Assembly: GCF_051903065.1 (NCBI RefSeq) | Contig: NZ_CP178438.1 | DNA length: 64,000 bases | From: Escherichia coli | GTDB taxonomy: Bacteria; Pseudomonadota; Gammaproteobacteria; Enterobacterales; Enterobacteriaceae | Direction: 5' to 3' (one strand) | Part shown: positions 884 through 56,213 of the stretch, one piece after another | Position numbering within the stretch: position 1 is the stretch's first letter | Layout: each line of letters begins with the position of its first letter | Notes under the pieces: model-generated | Told to the model about the DNA's origin: nothing | Database searches by the model: none | What the model saw: the letters and a program-made list of their open reading frames with translations, nothing else | Program-made: the position numbers and the translations under genes

Positions 884-2394
884 TCCTTCAATCCCAGACG
901 TTTCGCCAGCCGATGCAGGTTGGCGACGTCGGTTTCCAGCATTCGCGCGCAGGCTGCCCAGTTGTGATGATTTTGTGCCAGTGCCTGACGAATAGTTTCA
1001 CGCTGGAACGCTTCTGTCGCTTCACGCAGGTTTTGCTTAACAACGGGCACCGCCGCCGCTTCTGGCGGCGGTAACGTCACCTCAGGAAAAGCAAAATGTT
1101 GCGCCTCAAGAATCACTTCATCGCCGCTGCGGGTGGCTCTCGCCAGCACTACCGCCCGATGAATAGCATGTTCCAGTTCGCGCACGTTCCCCGGAAAACG
1201 ATAGTGTTGCAGTAAATTTCGCGCTCCGGCACTTAATACCACGCGGGAGAGCCCCTGCCGCAAACGACACTGCTCGCAGAAATACCCCGCCAGCAGAATG
1301 ACATCATCGCCCCGCTCACGCAGCGGCGGCACCGAAAGTGGAAACACGCTCAGGCGGTGGAACAAGTCAGCGCGAAATCGCCCTGCCAGCACCTCTTCGC
1401 GTAAATCGCGGTTAGTCGCCGCCAGCACGCGCACATCGACCCGCAAACTACGGTCATCGCCAACGCGCTGAATATCGCCATACTGCAACACCCTCAGCAG
1501 CTTGGCCTGCAATGCCAACGACAACTCGCCGATCTCATCCAGAAACAGCGTGCCGTTATCCGCCATTTCAAACTTCCCACTGCGGTTACTGATTGCGCCA
1601 GTAAACGCTCCTTTCACATGCCCGAACAACTCACTTTCCGCCACACTTTCCGGCAGTGCGGCACAGTTGAGATAGACCAGCGGATTCACCGCCCGTGGCG
1701 AGGCCTCATGAATCGCTTTCGCCACCAGCTCCTTACCGGTTCCCGTCTCACCGCTGATCAGGACGTTGAGATCGGACGCCGCCACAATCTCAATCTCTTT
1801 TTTCAGTTGCGTCATGCCTGGCGACAGACCGATCATCTGCGTCTGTTTCACCGCTTCAAATGGAGCGGCATCGCCCGGCAGCATATTCTGGCTTTCCAGT
1901 TGCTCAATCAGCAACGCATTGCTTAACGCTCCCGCCGCCAGCGCGGCAATCAGGCGTAACTCTTCGTCACTGAAAACATCGAACTGATCGGGCTGCATTC
2001 CGTCGAGCGTCAATGCGCCGATCAGGTTTTGTCCGGCAAACAACGGCAGACCAACGCAGGCGTGGACCTTCAGACTCTCCTGTCCGGGAATCAAACCATC
2101 ATAGGGATCGGGCAATTCGCTGTCTGCGGGAAAGCGCACCACGTCCCCGGCGCGGGCAATCGCTTCCAGCCGTGGATGCCCTTCCAGCGCAAAGCGTCTA
2201 CCGAGTACATCCTTTGCCAGACCGTCGATGGCAAGCGGAATAAACTGCCGCGAATCGTAACGTAGCAACGCAGACGCATCGCACTCCAGCACCTGACGCA
2301 GCGTGGTGATCAGGCGCTGAAAACGATCCTGATGACCAATCCCACGCTGCAATTCGATGGCGATATTCGCCAGCACATCAACGGAAAAACTCAT
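880..2394 (-). CDS. norR: Sigma54-dependent NO-responsive transcriptional activator NorR (GAF + AAA+ + HTH)
   Basis: ORF 880..2469; start placed at [18 protein letters not shown] (ATG 2394); AAA+ motifs GETGTGKE and GAFTGA; divergent from norVW. Confidence 0.9.
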
Positions 2395-2406
2395 CTTTGC
2401 CTCACT

Positions 2407-2462
2407 GTCAATTTGACTATAGATATTGTCATATTGACCATTTGATTGATAGTCATTTTGAC
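2407..2462. promoter_or_regulatory. Three NorR enhancer sites of GT-N7-AC type
   Basis: GTCAATTTGAC (2407-2417), GTCATATTGAC (2428-2438), GTCATTTTGAC (2452-2462), upstream of the sigma54 promoter. Confidence 0.6.
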
Positions 2463-2517
2463 TACTCATTAATGAGCATAATTCTATTTATATAGTAAAA
2501 ACAATCAGATAAAAAAC

Positions 2518-2533
2518 TGGCACGCAATCTGCA
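2518..2533 (+). promoter_or_regulatory. Sigma54 (-24/-12) promoter of norVW
   Basis: TGGCAC-GCAAT-CTGCA, 48 nt upstream of norV ATG; AT-rich tract between it and the NorR sites. Confidence 0.65.
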
Positions 2534-2580
2534 ATTAGCAAGACATCTTTTTAGAACACGCTGAATAAATTGAGGTTGCT

Positions 2581-4020
2581 ATGTCTATTGTGGTGAAAAA
2601 TAACATTCATTGGGTGGGTCAACGTGACTGGGAAGTGCGTGATTTTCACGGTACAGAATATAAAACGCTGCGCGGCAGCAGCTACAACAGCTACCTCATC
2701 CGCGAAGAAAAAAACGTGCTGATCGACACCGTCGACCATAAATTCAGCCGCGAATTTGTGCAGAACCTGCGTAATGAAATCGATCTGGCGGATATCGATT
2801 ACATCGTGATTAACCATGCAGAAGAGGACCACGCCGGGGCGCTGACCGAACTGATGGCACAAATTCCCGATACGCCGATCTACTGTACAGCCAACGCTAT
2901 CGACTCGATAAATGGTCATCACCATCATCCGGAGTGGAATTTTAATGTGGTGAAAACTGGCGACACGCTGGATATCGGCAACGGCAAACAGCTCATTTTT
3001 GTCGAAACACCAATGCTGCACTGGCCGGACAGCATGATGACTTACCTGACAGGCGACGCGGTGCTGTTCAGTAACGATGCTTTCGGTCAGCACTACTGCG
3101 ACGAGCATCTGTTCAACGATGAAGTGGATCAGACGGAGCTTTTTGAGCAGTGCCAGCGTTACTACGCCAATATCCTTACGCCGTTCAGCCGCCTGGTAAC
3201 GCCGAAAATTACCGAGATCCTCGGCTTTAACTTACCAGTCGATATGATAGCGACCTCTCACGGCGTGGTATGGCGCGATAACCCGACGCAAATTGTCGAG
3301 CTGTACCTGAAATGGGCGGCTGATTATCAGGAAGACAGAATCACCATTTTCTACGACACCATGTCGAATAACACCCGCATGATGGCTGACGCTATCGCCC
3401 AGGGAATTGCGGAAACCGACCCACGCGTGGCGGTGAAAATTTTCAACGTCGCCCGAAGCGATAAAAACGAAATCCTGACCAATGTCTTCCGCTCAAAAGG
3501 CGTGCTGGTCGGCACTTCGACGATGAATAACGTGATGATGCCGAAAATCGCCGGGCTGGTGGAGGAGATGACCGGATTACGCTTCCGTAACAAACGCGCC
3601 AGTGCTTTCGGCTCTCACGGCTGGAGCGGCGGTGCGGTGGATCGTCTTTCCACGCGCCTGCAGGATGCGGGTTTCGAAATGTCGCTTAGCCTGAAAGCGA
3701 AATGGCGACCAGACCAGGACGCTCTGGAGTTATGCCGTGAACACGGTCGCGAAATCGCCCGTCAGTGGGCGCTCGCGCCGCTGCCGCAGAGCACGGTGAA
3801 TGCGGTAGTTAAAGAAGAAACCTCTGCCACCACGACGGCTGACCTCGGCCCACGGATGCAGTGCAGCGTCTGCCAGTGGATTTACGATCCGGCAAAAGGC
3901 GAGCCAATGCAGGACGTTGCGCCAGGAACGCCGTGGAGTGAAGTCCCGGATAACTTCCTCTGCCCAGAATGCTCCCTCGGCAAAGACGTCTTTGAAGAAC
4001 TGGCATCGGAGGCAAAATGA
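2581..4020 (+). CDS. norV: Anaerobic nitric oxide reductase flavorubredoxin NorV
   Basis: 479 aa; metallo-beta-lactamase-like N-terminus, flavodoxin-like middle, C-terminal rubredoxin CxxC...CxxC (CSVCQW...CPEC). Confidence 0.95.
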
Positions 4021-5150
4021 GTAACGGCATTGTGATCATCGGTTCGGGCTTCGCCGCCCGCCAACTGGTGAAAAATATTCGCAAACAGGACGCAACTATT
4101 CCATTAACCCTGATTGCCGCCGACAGCATGGATGAGTACAACAAACCTGACCTCAGCCATGTTATCAGTCAGGGGCAACGTGCCGATGACCTTACCCGCC
4201 AGACGGCGGGTGAATTTGCCGAGCAGTTTACTCTGCGCCTGTTTCCGCAAACCTGGGTGACGGATATCGATGCCGAAGCCCATGTGGTGAAAAGCCAGAA
4301 TAATCAGTGGCAATACGACAAGTTAGTGCTGGCAACCGGTGCCAGCGCCTTTGTCCCGCCTGTGCCTGGGCGTGAGTTAATGCTGACGTTAAATAGTCAG
4401 CAAGAGTATCGCGCCTGTGAAACGCAACTGCGGGATGCCCGACGCGTGTTGATTGTTGGCGGTGGTTTGATTGGTAGCGAACTGGCGATGGATTTTTGTC
4501 GTGCAGGCAAAGCGGTCACGCTCATCGACAACGCTGCCAGTATTCTGGCGTCGTTAATGCCACCGGAAGTAAGCAGCCGCTTGCAGCATCGGTTGACGGA
4601 GATGGGCGTTCATCTGCTGTTGAAATCTCAGTTGCAGGGGCTGGAAAAAACGGATTCTGGCATTCTGGCAACGCTGGACCGCCAGCGTAGTATCGAAGTG
4701 GATGCGGTAATTGCCGCCACCGGACTGCGCCCGGAAACCGCCCTGGCACGACGCGCCGGGCTGACGATTAATCGCGGCGTTTGCGTCGATAGTTATCTGC
4801 AAACCAGTAATGCCGATATTTACGCGCTGGGCGATTGCGCGGAAATTAACGGTCAGGTATTGCCGTTCCTCCAGCCGATTCAACTTAGCGCGATGGTGCT
4901 GGCAAAAAATCTTCTCGGCAATAACACGCCGCTGAAACTACCGGCGATGCTGGTGAAAATCAAAACGCCGGAATTACCGCTGCATCTGGCAGGCGAAACC
5001 CAGCGTCAGGATTTACGTTGGCAGATTAATACCGAACGCCAGGGAATGGTGGCGCGCGGCGTTGACGATGCTGACCAGCTTCGCGCCTTTGTGGTAAGTG
5101 AGGATCGGATGAAAGAGGCATTTGGATTGTTGAAAACGTTGCCGGTGTAG
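4017..5150 (+). CDS. norW: NADH:flavorubredoxin reductase NorW
   Basis: 377 aa; ATGA overlap with norV stop; FAD/NAD Rossmann motifs GSGFAA and GGGLIG. Confidence 0.93.
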
Positions 5151-45341: not shown

Positions 45342-45858
45342 GGGTGTTCTACCGCAGGGGCGGGGAATTCTCAGTGATATCCATCATCGCATCCAGTGCG
45401 CCCGGTTTATCCCCGCTGGCGCGGGGAACACGTGTGGCACTCTGCGTCTGGTATTAAATCATTCGGTTTATCCCCGCTGGCGCGGGGAACACCCGCCACG
45501 CCGTGCGCATCAACAGATATACGCAGGTTTATCCCCGCTGGCGCGGGGAACACAAACCGAAACACACGATCAATCCGAATATGAGCGGTTTATCCCCGCT
45601 GGCGCGGGGAACACCGAAAAGGCACCGTGCCGGTGACGTTCAATTCCGGTTTATCCCCGCTGGCGCGGGGAACACCGTTTTCACTCACTGGCAATCTCCG
45701 AGCAGAGCGGTTTATCCCCGCTGGCGCGGGGAACACGTGCGAATACCGTGTAAAAAATTAGTGTTATTCGGTTTATCCCCGCTGGCGCGGGGAACACTCA
45801 CGGTAGCGCCACTGCGCGTCGGTGACGGGCGGTTTATCCCCGCTGGCGCGGGGAACAC
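45342..45858 (-). CRISPR. Type I-E CRISPR array: 8 canonical 29-bp repeats plus one degenerate terminal repeat, 8 spacers
   Basis: Repeat on + strand CGGTTTATCCCCGCTGGCGCGGGGAACAC at 45403, 45464, 45525 (first base A), 45586, 45647, 45708, 45769, 45830; 61-bp period; degenerate iap-proximal repeat 45342-45370 matches 19/29; spacers 32 bp; leader at the high-coordinate end, so crRNA is read from the minus strand. Confidence 0.97.
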
Positions 45859-45954
45859 ACTAAGCATACATATCTGTTTTTAAACAAATTTATTCCACAT
45901 CAACAATCTACCAACTAAATTCAAACATTTCCTTATTTTTAAAGAACACATAAC
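45859..45954 (-). promoter_or_regulatory. CRISPR leader (AT-rich, carries the array promoter)
   Basis: 96-bp AT-rich segment between cas2 stop and the leader-proximal repeat. Confidence 0.8.
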
Positions 45955-47164
<1,210 letters not shown>

Positions 47165-51719: not shown

Positions 51720-52115
51720 ACGCATCCTCTCGTAGAAAAGACCATCCCTGGTCGGTTGTCCATCACCATATTTTCAGATTTAGTTGGAGACTTAATCTGA
51801 GTCGGATAAAAGAAAAGACGTTGAATGTGATACGAAAATCGAACTTAGTTTGTCGTTTTGAAAGCAGACTTAGCACAAGTTGAAGCAAAAAAATCGACAA
51901 CATCGTAGTCCTCTTCACCGCAGCTTTTCACCGGTCACGAAAATACGCCTTGTAACGGTGTGACTCAACTCCGGATCCGGACATTATTTAAAATCTTTGT
52001 TTCTCATTAACTCATAGCAATTACCCATCTATCATAATCACAATAGCATTGATAAAATAAATCCATTCCCTGATTCTAGGGATTAACCAAGTTAGTGAGA
52101 TACAAAAATTGGTTC

Positions 52116-52144
52116 CTGTTCCCCGCGTCAGCGGGGATAAGCCC
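52116..52144 (+). repeat. Solitary CRISPR-repeat-like element in the cas3-cse1 intergenic region
   Basis: + strand CTGTTCCCCGCGTCAGCGGGGATAAGCCC matches the crRNA-sense repeat GTGTTCCCCGCGCCAGCGGGGATAAACCG at 25/29 with the stem intact; orientation is opposite to the array; followed by a perfect 10-bp hairpin at 52142-52165 that abuts the cas3 stop. Confidence 0.8.
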
Positions 52145-52169
52145 TGGCGTCATCCGACGCCAGGGCATC

Positions 52170-54869
52170 TCAATCAACCTTGCCAATCAATCCTTCCGTA
52201 GCCGAATACCCGCAGCTTTCGTCATCGGTGACTAAAATCACGTTTGCCATCTCCGGATCTTGCCGTTGTTCAATGCACCACTGCCTGAACGCTTCCCCTT
52301 CCAGTAAAGAAAATTCATCCCGATGTTTTTTCCACCAGCTTCGACGCACTCTGGCAACGCTCATTTCCCATGCGTGAGCACCGCTGGCATAAGGCTTCAC
52401 CACACCGTCAATACAGGTAGCCAGCCACAGGGAAACAGACTCTTCAGCCAGACGTGTCGACAGCTTTTCCGGGAGGTAATCGTTGATATTGGCGGCATAG
52501 CCGGGCCTGAAGTTCAGCATAAACTTTTTAGCCATTGCGCGATCGCAGTAATATTTGCCCACTTGCTCCTGCTCGCTGCGGGCAAATCCTTCCGGCATTA
52601 CCACGTCCTCACCGTAGACGGATTCAATAAGAAGCCGGGCTGCGTGTGGCATCTGAATAGCGCCTTGCTCACGCAATACTCGCTGCGTCAGCCAGATTCG
52701 CCCATGATCGGGGTAGACATATGCGCTGTTACGCATCGCACTACCAAACCATTCGTCACCCGGAGAGTCGTCCCAGACGGGGGCCAGAATCAGCAATTCA
52801 GGAGGGGAACGCTCGTCTTTTCCATCACGTTTTAACTGACCATTAATATCACGAATATGCCGTTGTAATCGCCCCGCTCGCTGGATCAGCAAATCAATGG
52901 GGGCCAGGTCGGAGATCATTTCGTCCAGGTCAATATCCACACTTTGCTCAATTACTTGTGTACAAACAATGACTTGAGATGATCTTTTTAAACTACAATT
53001 TTTACCAAAGCGTGCCAGCGTTTCCGTTTCAATTCGCTGGCGATCGCTAAAAGCAAAGCGGCTATGAAAAAGTGAAAGGCTGGAAGCAGGAATGACGCCG
53101 CGGGCAAGTAACTGACGATAAACCTTAATAGCGTCATCGACAGAATTCCGGATCCAGGCGATGCATTTCCCCTGACTTACCGCTGATTCGATACGCGCAA
53201 TACATTCTTGTTCGCTATGAAGCCAACCCACGCTCACGCTACGCTCAACGTCTTTGCGCGTCGCTACCCGGTGCGAATGCACATCGGATTTCGTGACATG
53301 CGTCAGCCAGGGGTAATCATCCTTTTCTAGGAACGGAGCTTCTTGCTGGCCCTCTGTGCCACGCGCAAAGGCGGCGACAAGTTTGTCGCGCTGCTGTTGA
53401 GATAACGTAGCAGAAAGCAAAATGACGCTGTTTCCGCCACGCACCTGTCGCTCAATCAACCCTTCAAGAATGTACGACATGTAAGCGTCACAGGCGTGGA
53501 TCTCATCAGCCAGCAGGATTTTGTTACTCAACCCCAGAAGCCGCAGATTATTATGTTTAAACGGCATCACTGCCATCATCGCCTGATCCAGCGTGCCGAC
53601 GCCAATTTCAGCCAGTAAAGCCTTCTTGTTACTGTCGGCAAACCAGGCTGCACATCCTTGACTGAACGCTTGTTCATCCGGTTCTTCTGACCCGACTAAA
53701 TCACCGGACCAGAGTGATTCATTAAAGCGTTCCATTAATGTACGGGCGCTGTGTGCCAGCACCAGGCTGGGGCGGGATTCTGGCGAAAAGAAAGCAAGCC
53801 AGGTTTTGACCAGCCGATCGTACATGGCATTGGCCGTTGCCATTGTTGGCAGGCCAAAAAACAAACCCTGAGCTTTATTCTCAGCCATCAACCTGTGCGC
53901 CAGGATAAGCGCCGCTTCTGTTTTACCTGCGCCAGTCACATCTTCCAGAATAAATAACTGTGGCCCTGGCTGGCTGATATCCAGATCCAGTACCTTTTGC
54001 TGTAATGGTGTCGGGTGCTCAATAAAAGGAAACAGCGTATTAATTCCGGTGAAAGGTGCGGTTTCTGCTTTTGGAGGAAAGACGGTTAAGGCGTTTTGAG
54101 CCTGAACTAAAGTTTTCTGCCAGTAATCTTTAATATTCATTGTCTGTGCGACGCGTGGAAAAAATCGCGTTGACGAACCCGTCCAGTCTGCGAGTACGAC
54201 TGTTGCAGAGATATACCAGGAAAGTTGTTTTAAAAGTTCAACGCCCTCGTCATCATCCCAGAATGTGGGAATCTCTATGAGCGGAAACAGTGACTTGATT
54301 TCAAGGAGAAAATCTCGTGCGGCAGCTTTGTCTTCAGGCAGGAAATTATCCAGTTCATCAATACGGTCAGGGGGCCGACCATGATGCCCGGTAGTCATGG
54401 GCATCCACATCGCTATTACACGTTTAAGTTTGCGAGTAGAGAGTGAAGAGGCAGGAAGCAATTCTTCGCATTCACTTAAATAATGATGCCACAACCAGTA
54501 GCCCAGCGTTGAATGAGAGATCTTTTCGTAATTCTTTCTTGCGCCTTCCGGAACCTTGAGTTGTGGGTGCAGGTAAAGTTGCTGAAATGAGCGGGCAAAT
54601 TTTCCAATATCGTGCCAGCACAACAACCAGGCGAAAAATTGAGCCGCCTGTTCCTTGTCAGAAATCCCTAATTGACGAAAATAATCAGCCAGCCCGAAGC
54701 AATTTCTTTTAACCATTAAATAGCCCATCGCGGCCACATCCAGCGAATGCCAGCAAAGAAGGTGATAGTCGTCACCCCCTTCTTTCTCGTCGCGTCGGGT
54801 TTTTCCCCAGAAATCAAAGAAAGTCACAATATTTTTATCCTTCAGTAAACTTAAAGGATATTTACGCAT
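52170..54869 (-). CDS. cas3: Cas3 HD nuclease / SF2 helicase (type I-E)
   Basis: 899 aa; N-terminal HD motifs (LLCWHSLDV, WHDIGKF), helicase Walker A GAGKTEAAL and DEIHA box; highly AT-rich upstream region. Confidence 0.92.
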   Translation of the reverse strand: MRKYPLSLLKDKNIVTFFDFWGKTRRDEKEGGDDYHLLCWHSLDVAAMGYLMVKRNCFGLADYFRQLGISDKEQAAQFFAWLLCWHDIGKFARSFQQLYLHPQLKVPEGARKNYEKISHSTLGYWLWHHYLSECEELLPASSLSTRKLKRVIAMWMPMTTGHHGRPPDRIDELDNFLPEDKAAARDFLLEIKSLFPLIEIPTFWDDDEGVELLKQLSWYISATVVLADWTGSSTRFFPRVAQTMNIKDYWQKTLVQAQNALTVFPPKAETAPFTGINTLFPFIEHPTPLQQKVLDLDISQPGPQLFILEDVTGAGKTEAALILAHRLMAENKAQGLFFGLPTMATANAMYDRLVKTWLAFFSPESRPSLVLAHSARTLMERFNESLWSGDLVGSEEPDEQAFSQGCAAWFADSNKKALLAEIGVGTLDQAMMAVMPFKHNNLRLLGLSNKILLADEIHACDAYMSYILEGLIERQVRGGNSVILLSATLSQQQRDKLVAAFARGTEGQQEAPFLEKDDYPWLTHVTKSDVHSHRVATRKDVERSVSVGWLHSEQECIARIESAVSQGKCIAWIRNSVDDAIKVYRQLLARGVIPASSLSLFHSRFAFSDRQRIETETLARFGKNCSLKRSSQVIVCTQVIEQSVDIDLDEMISDLAPIDLLIQRAGRLQRHIRDINGQLKRDGKDERSPPELLILAPVWDDSPGDEWFGSAMRNSAYVYPDHGRIWLTQRVLREQGAIQMPHAARLLIESVYGEDVVMPEGFARSEQEQVGKYYCDRAMAKKFMLNFRPGYAANINDYLPEKLSTRLAEESVSLWLATCIDGVVKPYASGAHAWEMSVARVRRSWWKKHRDEFSLLEGEAFRQWCIEQRQDPEMANVILVTDDESCGYSATEGLIGKVD

Positions 54870-55061
54870 ATTTTAAAAATTATCTGTGATATATATCAGC
54901 CAATAAAACATTTATATTGTGAATAAATTTATGATTTTCATTTGAAATTCATAATAATAAATAGAGACAATATATTCACATAAAAAATATAAATTTAAAA
55001 AAGGGTGCAGGAGACCAAACCATCACAATTCAATACGCGGGGTTTTACCCCCGCGTGGTGG

Positions 55062-55214
55062 CTACTTCTTCGATTCGTAAGCGAGAACAGCCTTAAACTC
55101 CATACCACGTTCTCTGATACTCAACTCACACAACGAGTCACCTACCATCAGCGTGAATCCCAGTACTGTACAACACAGTACGATGATTGCCACAAGGGCA
55201 TATTTTGTCAGCAT
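55062..55214 (-). CDS. Hok/Gef-family type I toxin (50 aa), HokE-like
   Basis: Not in ORF track (too short). ATG 55214 after GGGAGG; translation [50 protein letters not shown] with the Hok signature SLCE..R.G.E..A.LAYES.K; stem-loop GCGGGGGTAAAACCCCGC just downstream (55036-55055). Confidence 0.7.
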
Positions 55215-55478
55215 GTCTTGCCTCCCTGCAAAGAAGAGACTAACATTCGAATTGCTTAGGTTCGAACGCTGGCCTCAGGTTGATAGAAATATCGCCTGGG
55301 GCTTTTGTCCATCTGGAACCTCGCGAATGCTTAACGCCAGACAGCCTCAAGCACCCAACACCATTCTATACCTGTTAATTCTTCCAGCGGCGTTCACGTT
55401 TAAAATCAGGAATGCTGCTCGCAAAATAAAAACGCCCCCATCATTTCTGACAGAGGCGTTTAATTTATCCGGCAATAT

Positions 55479-56213
55479 TTACCCTTCGTGTAACCCACAT
55501 TCCCTTTTTAAGCCAAAGAAACGCGTTTCTTCTTCAGCCATGCCGGGTTCCCATTTACGGGTTGTATGGGTATCACCAACCGATAAATATCCTTCATCCC
55601 ATAATGGGTGATATTTAAGGCCATGTTTTTGCAGGTACTGATAAATAGTTCGGTTATCCCAGTCGATAATCGGCAGCACTTTAAATACGCCACGCTGAAT
55701 TGCCAGCACCGGTAAATTGGCGCGGCTGCCGGATTGTTCGCGGCGCAGGCCAGCAAACCACGTTTGCGCGTTAAGTTCTTTCAGCGCCCGGTTCATCGGT
55801 TCGACTTTGTTGATGTCATTGTACTTTTCAATGCCTTCAACGCCCTGTTCCCACAGTTTTCCGTAGCGTGCTTCCTGCCAGGCTGCGCTTTCGGTAGCAC
55901 GGTACACTTTCAGGTTGAGCTTGAGTTTGTCCGTTAACTCGTCAATAAAGCGGTAGGTTTCCGGGAACAAGTAACCGGTATCGGTGAGGATCACTGGAAT
56001 ATCCGGGCGAATCTGATTCACCAGATGCAGGCTCACCGCCGCCTGAATGCCGAAGCTGGAAGAAAGCACATATTCACCGGGCAGATTATCCAGCGCCCAG
56101 GCTACGCGGCCTTCAGCGTCCAGTTTTTCCAGTTGGGCGTTAGTTTCTGCCAGCGCCAGAATGCGATCTACCTTCGGCAGTTCGTTCAGGGCGTTTAGAT
56201 CGAGTTTGGGCAT
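55479..56213 (-). CDS. cysH: Phosphoadenosine phosphosulfate (PAPS) reductase
   Basis: ORF 55479..56366; start at [14 protein letters not shown] (ATG 56213, 244 aa); C-terminal ECGLH motif. Confidence 0.93.

Follow-up and report, generated by a model that had tools for sequence, protein, structure and literature searches.

The AT-rich DNA that precedes cas3 in this strain of Escherichia coli is most likely the control region of that gene. Here, we analyzed positions 54870 to 55061 of a 64,000-nucleotide stretch of E. coli DNA, hereafter called the window. We consider it probable that this interval joins the 3′ untranslated region (UTR) of a hok mRNA to a class II CRP-type promoter for cas3, the latter combined with an AT-rich platform of the H-NS type. 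Specifically, the interval would comprise two unrelated elements joined end to end on the minus strand. The first, from 54997 to 55061, is the hok 3′ UTR with its hairpin, fold-back element, and U-run. The second, from 54828 to 54996, would be a cas3 regulatory region that moves as part of the type I-E cas cassette. The 75 bp nearest to cas3 are a candidate class II CRP-type sigma-70 promoter, and the distal ~96 bp (12–16% GC) would most likely serve as a platform for H-NS nucleation and spreading, or possibly as UP-element-like DNA. Transcription would start at ~54851, followed by a 24-nt leader carrying AAGGA and by translation from a GTG codon at 54827. The annotated ATG at 54869 would thus lie upstream of the transcript. 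The notion is that cas3 would be expressed only once silencing has been lifted and cAMP-CRP is present.

Locus and boundaries of the AT-rich tract

Read along the minus strand, the locus is ordered cysJ, cysI, cysH (55479–56213), hok, cas3, cse1 to cas2, a CRISPR array, and then iap. The annotated cas3 ORF spans 52170–54869 (minus strand, 899 aa). Its product carries HD nuclease, SF2 helicase, and Cas3 C-terminal domains (Pfam Cas3_HD, DEAD, and Cas3-like_C_2; RefSeq annotation), and cas ORFs and a CRISPR array lie downstream. By this domain set, and by its position at the head of the unit before cse1–cas2 and the array, the gene is a type I-E cas3. It is the non-K-12 variant, and its coding sequence occupies 52170–54827 (minus strand, 885 aa) when counted from the GTG. 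The N-terminus of the window Cas3 shares 28% identity with that of K-12 Cas3, and the Salmonella system is a close relative (64% identity). This gene corresponds to the second, commoner E. coli variant, and the window-type variant is found in 35% versus 11% of uropathogenic strains (PMC12736100). When the interval and its surroundings were searched as a 781-bp query, 5425 of 5426 complete E. coli genomes matched, one strain at 100% identity, and 2237 of the 5426 covered at least 80% of that query (54700–55480, comprising the cas3 5′ end, hok, and the end of cysH).

The CRISPR array contains eight repeats (45402–45869; 61-bp period; core repeat GGTTTATCCCCGCTGGCGCGGGGAACAC). It came from a separate repeat search, TRF having reported no tandem repeats in the 40–64 kb region. 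An AT-rich leader (~26% GC) separates the array from cas2, and array and leader together span 45402–45985. A further AT dip, of 27.6% GC at 51983–52109, lies in the ~444-bp spacer between cas3 and cse1 (51726–52169), which is the positional equivalent of the K-12 region with the H-NS/LeuO-controlled Pcas. These two dips are the other expected promoter regions of the cas locus, and the dip upstream of cas3 is the deepest of the three by far.

The original prediction held that the whole of 54870–55061 is extremely AT-rich. The interval contains 27.6% GC compared with a window mean of 53.2% (z = −4.7), and a scan of the 64 kb found equally low GC in 0.16% of 192-bp windows. The claim stands for 54870–54996, the AT-rich tract proper, whose 15.0% GC is the minimum among all 127-bp windows in the 64 kb (z = −6.3). 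It does not stand for the rightmost 65 bp, 54997–55061, which at 52% GC lie outside the AT-rich tract and belong to the GC-normal hok 3′ UTR. The A/T strings quoted as examples lie at 54870–54899 and 54952–54978. On the other side, low GC extends leftward into the annotated cas3 ORF: 54828–55002 is 16.6% GC, and its seven A/T runs of at least four place it in the top 0.2% of the window. The predicted stretch dominated by A/T runs upstream of cas3 is real, as the base-composition scan gives the lowest GC of the window, and it lies, as proposed, directly upstream of the annotated cas3 ATG (54869, minus strand).

The right end of the tract coincides with a genomic junction. In a cas-less E. coli strain, iap is located ~125 bp from hok, and homology to the window starts at ~54996, exactly at the end of the AT tract. 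Because cas-less strains lack the tract, we assign it to the cas cassette. In K-12, which carries the other cas variant, homology stops at the hok start codon, and the DNA upstream of cas3 is unrelated and 35% GC. Thus, the cas variants differ in their right-hand junction, which in K-12 falls at the hok start codon and in the window at the 3′ end of the hok mRNA. The hok ORF has been lost in K-12 (window 55212–55214 compared with 6310–6314 of L002).

The hok mRNA 3′ end

In its right 65 bp, the interval carries the 3′ end of a hok/sok type I toxin–antitoxin mRNA, and the earlier proposal that the interval overlaps the 3′ end of a hok-like locus is borne out by the annotation of its surroundings. 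The hok toxin gene (55062–55214, minus strand, 50 aa) matches Pfam HOK_GEF (PF01848, E = 5.7e-10) and is labeled "Hok/Gef family protein" in RefSeq. The hok mRNA leader and Sok target region (55199–55356, minus strand) match the Rfam sok model RF01794 at 111.7 bits, compared with a gathering score of 59, and the antisense SokX equivalent (~55254–55312, plus strand) was placed by transferring the K-12 sokX annotation through alignment. The 3′ UTR itself (54997–55061, minus strand) contains a hairpin at 55036–55055, an fbi-like element, GGTCTCCTGCACCC, at 55003–55016, and a T6 run at 54997–55002. In the predicted fold of 55360–54985 (minus strand), the 5′ segment GGGUGC..GAGGCU, near 55356, pairs with the 3′ segment GGUCUC..GCACCC at 55003–55016. 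This pairing is present in both the minimum-free-energy and the centroid folds (energy z = −3.2), and the U6 directly follows the paired element. Such a 5′–3′ fold-back, of tac with fbi, is the known architecture of hok mRNAs.

Like hok/sok of plasmid R1 and chromosomal hokX/sokX, the window locus possesses a Hok ORF, a Sok region, and an fbi-like 3′ element. Unlike the plasmid R1 system, the window copy is chromosomal and carries no separate terminator hairpin after fbi. The 3′ UTR segment is kept in cas-less E. coli, Pseudocitrobacter, Escherichia sp., and E. albertii. We rejected the idea that hok/sok functions as a cas-linked addiction module, as hok/sok adjoins cysH in cas-less strains too; hok/sokX was reported next to cysH in 90% of strains (PMC12736100).

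A scan for intrinsic terminators found none between hok and cas3; its matches lie only at 55461–55430 (minus strand), just downstream of cysH, and at 54761–54776 (plus strand), inside cas3. Local folding of the hok 3′ end yielded the hairpin and no stem abutting the U-run. With no canonical terminator at the U-run, transcription could read through from hok into cas3. This possibility lies at the core of a rival explanation, which we regard as improbable: that the AT tract has no regulatory role and is a drifting edge or scar of an acquired cas cassette, with cas3 expressed mainly by read-through. The co-orientation of hok and cas3, the lack of a hairpin-plus-U terminator at the hok 3′ end, and the identity of tract boundary and cassette boundary all fit that explanation. 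The proximal core of the region is strongly conserved, which argues against it.

Two further features of the hok 3′ end deserve mention. The 3′ hairpin, CGCGGGG-N6-CCCCGCG, is built from the same G/C arms as the CRISPR repeat stem (CCCCGC..GCGGGG), with the order reversed. This likeness is probably a coincidence since the hairpin is also present in cas-less strains. In an E. albertii locus (L015), the hok coding sequence (122–271) is located ~1.5 kb from its own 3′ UTR remnant (~1620–1832). The remnant still abuts the cas3 AT tract, an arrangement that suggests an insertion into the hok 3′ hairpin.

The cas3 start codon and its candidate promoter

Translation of cas3 most likely starts at the GTG at 54825–54827 (minus strand), residue 15 of the annotated ORF, and not at the annotated ATG at 54867–54869. 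If so, the annotated start is probably 14 codons too long. The case comes from relatives, indels, and the Pfam match. A protein-guided scan supplied 15 related loci from more than 10 enterobacterial genera, and in 13 of the 15 a start codon (GTG, TTG, or ATG) occupies the position aligned to codon 15; in 8 relatives the open frame offers no other candidate. E. coli L012, Pseudocitrobacter (L013), Escherichia sp. (L014), and E. coli strain 755 each carry a 1-nt insertion in the segment that separates the ATG from the GTG, so that the ATG no longer shares the reading frame of the gene. When the protein is counted from the GTG, the match to Pfam Cas3_HD starts at residue 7. Moreover, a Shine–Dalgarno-like AAGGA (54838–54842, minus strand) is located 10 nt upstream of the GTG, in a GG-rich column conserved in relatives. 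The annotated ATG has no Shine–Dalgarno sequence and is probably non-coding. Finally, the 42-nt segment from ATG to GTG is the most conserved block among the E. coli strains (0 differences in 42 positions), a degree of conservation that fits regulatory DNA better than coding sequence.

The start codon also bears on gene calling. In strain 755 (L009), cas3 is labeled "frameshifted" owing to the 1-nt insertion in the 42-nt segment, the portion of that gene that we examined. As the insertion is upstream of the likely true start, the label may be an annotation artefact.

Between the start codon and the distal tract lies a CRP-like palindrome that is the strongest sequence-specific feature of the tract and was missing from the original prediction. 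The site, at 54885–54900 (minus strand; sense GCTGA-TATATA-TCACA), matches TGTGA-N6-TCACA at 8 of 10 positions, and its center, 54892.5, is 65.5 bp upstream of GTG 54827. Within the window alone, the CRP core is not significant (22 matches with at most two mismatches versus 24 expected). We retain the site as a candidate because its register is conserved across genera. Specifically, in 9 of 13 quasi-independent relatives the motif scores 7/10 or better within a shared 5-bp register, counted from the start codon. The summed register score is 92, compared with 55.8 ± 3.7 in shuffles (z ~10) and 47–65 in other zones of the real sequences, bearing in mind that the motif was spotted before testing and that the compared sequences are homologous, so the shuffle P values overstate independence. 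The site is absent from three to four relatives (K. indica, C. youngae, Chimaeribacter, and E. coli L012), and its distal half is weak, reading GCTGA in the window and AACGA in the other E. coli allele.

A predicted −10 hexamer, AAATAT (54858–54863, minus strand), lies 21 nt downstream of the CRP-like site. It matches the consensus at 3 of 6 positions, including the key A2 and T6, and the offset is conserved: a hexamer with A2 and T6 occurs exactly 21 nt downstream of the site in 9 of 10 independent sequences, versus 0–5 at other offsets. An unguided MAFFT alignment marks the same elements. Conservation reaches at least 90% at G in the distal TGA, at TC in TCACA, and at A2 and T6 in the hexamer, and the GG-rich Shine–Dalgarno column and the start codon also stand out.

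In class II CRP promoters, the CRP site is centered near −41.5 and overlaps the −35 region; promoters of this class, such as galP1, are the subject of the Busby and Ebright model. If cas3 transcription starts 7 nt after the hexamer, the center of the window site falls at −41.5. We used this class II geometry to predict a transcription start at 54851 (± 2 nt, minus strand). Like galP1, the window site would be located at −41.5 with no recognizable −35 element; unlike typical members of the class, its distal half-site is degenerate and its −10 is weak.

A concrete precedent exists in K-12, where EMSA, footprinting, and reporter data establish that CRP activates the cas3 promoter at TATGA-N6-TCGAA (Yang et al. 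2020, PMC7019758). Downstream of this K-12 site, after exactly 21 nt, comes GATAAT, the spacing found in the window, and MAFFT places the K-12 site under the CRP-like site of the window. The K-12 promoter occupies the same slot, between the hok/sokX remnant and cas3, and its site-to-start-codon distance is 59.5 bp compared with 65.5 bp. The match to the CRP core is 7/10 in K-12 and 8/10 in the window. In other respects the two regions differ. They precede different cas3 variants, and their upstream DNA is otherwise not alignable. The K-12 region is 35% GC rather than 15% and has neither the ~96-bp extreme AT tract nor an intact hok. We considered and rejected homology between the K-12 cas3-upstream DNA and that of the window: the alignment fails beyond the hok start codon, and only the CRP/−10 architecture is common to both.

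The original prediction placed the cas3 promoter within 54870–55061. A conserved, promoter-like core does lie in the cas3-proximal part of that interval. The predicted −10 (54863–54858) and the predicted start (~54851) fall to its left, because the likely cas3 start is GTG 54827.

One alternative is a cas3 promoter that is not CRP-dependent, which we judge unlikely, though worth weighing. In this alternative, the −10 would be GATAAT (54884–54879) or TAAAAT (54875–54870), assisted by AT-rich DNA farther upstream in the role of an UP element, and TGA-N6-TCACA would serve either as the operator for a different regulator or as a site at which CRP overlaps the core promoter and represses it. Transcription would start at ~54872–54863, and an mRNA with almost no leader could be translated from ATG 54869. 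A consensus scan indeed reports CTGATA-N18-TAAAAT (54870–54899, minus strand; a 9/12 pattern match only), and the ATG is kept in all seven aligned E. coli strains. GATAAT (54879–54884, minus strand) abuts TCACA and is closer to the −10 consensus than is AAATAT. GATAAT or TATAAT also follows TCACA directly in Pseudocitrobacter, Escherichia sp., Phytobacter, and Pluralibacter, in two of these genera as TATAAT. Against this alternative, A2 and T6 of the adjacent −10 occur in at most 4 of 10 sequences at any one offset, versus 9 of 10 at 21 nt. The ATG lacks a Shine–Dalgarno sequence and, in the four indel-bearing loci, either has lost the frame or runs into a stop, and the K-12 CRP site, with identical spacing, activates cas3 (PMC7019758). 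Under the class II model that we prefer, CRP would occlude GATAAT; this hexamer may belong to a second promoter.

The distal tract, H-NS, and cas3 control across enterobacteria

Beyond the CRP-like site, the AT-rich DNA retains its composition and not its sequence. In the distal tract (54901–54996), the two E. coli alleles differ at 23 of 99 positions (23%), whereas divergence on either side, in cas3, hok, and the proximal core, is 0–5%. The GC content nevertheless remains 12.5–16.3% in all seven E. coli strains aligned. The distal tract is single-copy, restricted to the chromosome, and free of annotation, and it is present in 1770 of the 5426 genomes. One Escherichia sp. locus (L014) carries a 39-bp deletion (~54930–54970) that leaves the proximal core intact, consistent with a distal part that tolerates changes in length. 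Low GC upstream of cas3 is general among relatives: in 12 of the 15 related loci, the lowest-GC 100-bp window of the ~5.5-kb locus is found within 50–235 bp upstream of cas3. As hok neighbors cas3 only in the Escherichia and Pseudocitrobacter loci, this AT-richness is independent of hok. Conserved composition combined with free sequence is what a platform for an AT-preferring nucleoid protein would be expected to look like, and the distal tract is thus a candidate H-NS nucleation or spacer region.

The same observations bear on the drift and read-through explanation. The distal 96 bp evolve ~5 times faster than their flanks and accumulate indels, such as the 39-bp deletion, as an edge under drift would. 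Maintenance of 12–16% GC despite 23% divergence argues against free drift, as does AT-rich DNA upstream of cas3 in genera that have no hok. In addition, cas3 of S. Typhi is reported to form an independent transcription unit, silenced by H-NS (PMC8039139, citing Medina-Aparicio 2017). Judged by patterns of conservation, both the read-through and the non-CRP alternatives appear less well supported than the class II promoter model. We also weighed whether the tract might encode a small RNA or a small protein, or harbor a plus-strand promoter for an RNA antisense to the hok 3′ UTR, and we regard this as very improbable. Two plus-strand promoter-like matches at 54942–54976 point toward hok and are compatible with the idea. 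Both belong to the hypervariable portion, and neither is conserved from one allele to the other; the tract has no Rfam hit and no confined ORF of at least 30 aa, and nothing is annotated in it in RefSeq genomes.

H-NS is the nucleoid protein to which the literature on relatives points. In E. coli, Pcas and the CRISPR leader are reportedly silenced by H-NS (Pul 2010; Westra 2010), and the same is said of the cas3 and cas–CRISPR units of S. Typhi (Medina-Aparicio 2011, 2017). E. coli cas genes are repressed by H-NS (PMC4782391, PMC10013973), and in K. pneumoniae cas3 RNA is elevated in a Δhns mutant (PMC4987720). The window shares with these H-NS-silenced Enterobacteriaceae cas promoters an AT-rich promoter DNA that heads a mobile type I-E cas unit, with 15% GC over 127 bp compared with 53% for the window. 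It differs from them in that neither a significant nucleation motif nor phased curvature was detected. Specifically, a single 8/10 match to the H-NS nucleation motif (TCGATAAATT-like) is found in the tract, at 54920–54929. This match is not conserved in the other E. coli allele and is unremarkable given 77 matches window-wide versus 55 expected, so that the motif lends no specific support to H-NS nucleation here. Phased A-tract curvature, proposed earlier as a check on nucleoid-protein binding, fared no better: despite seven A/T runs in 175 bp, AA/TT dinucleotides show no excess power at 10–11 bp (P = 0.4–0.6, by a crude proxy for periodicity rather than a curvature model). Drawing on base composition and on the literature concerning relatives, we suggest that the variable AT tract fits H-NS-type silencing of cas3, with H-NS repressing and CRP activating the gene.

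What might such an arrangement mean? We tentatively propose, as an idea that could well prove wrong, that a class II CRP-type promoter (site at −41.5, ~60–65 bp upstream of the start codon) is ancestral to the type I-E cas3 genes of enterobacteria and conserved in them, whether of the K-12 or of the non-K-12/Salmonella-like variant. Through such a promoter, the amount of interference nuclease would follow cAMP status, beneath an AT tract that serves H-NS silencing. A bolder speculation is that read-through from a constitutively transcribed hok unit helps to open the silenced tract. In E. coli, the amount of Cas3 is limiting for type I-E interference (PMC4782391), and nearly all regulatory work has used the K-12 variant even though the variant in the window is commoner. 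The promoter model supplies testable targets (CRP site, −10, start, Shine–Dalgarno sequence, and GTG) for switching on the native system, and the GTG start would correct the gene model on which expression constructs and pseudogene calls are based. If the proposal is true, approximately two thousand RefSeq genomes place the cas3 start of the common E. coli variant 14 codons away from the real one, and the label "frameshifted" is an artefact in some cas3 calls. In other respects, the region is ordinary: AT-rich, H-NS-prone promoter DNA ahead of a horizontally acquired defense gene.

Finally, the cas3/hok region is a recurrent target of mobile elements. In E. coli PE164 (L005), an IS3-family element (1745–4543) interrupts cas3 in its 5′ part, with an integrase fragment between hok and cysH. 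In another locus (L004), IS421 copies and a hokE gene are found beside the locus.
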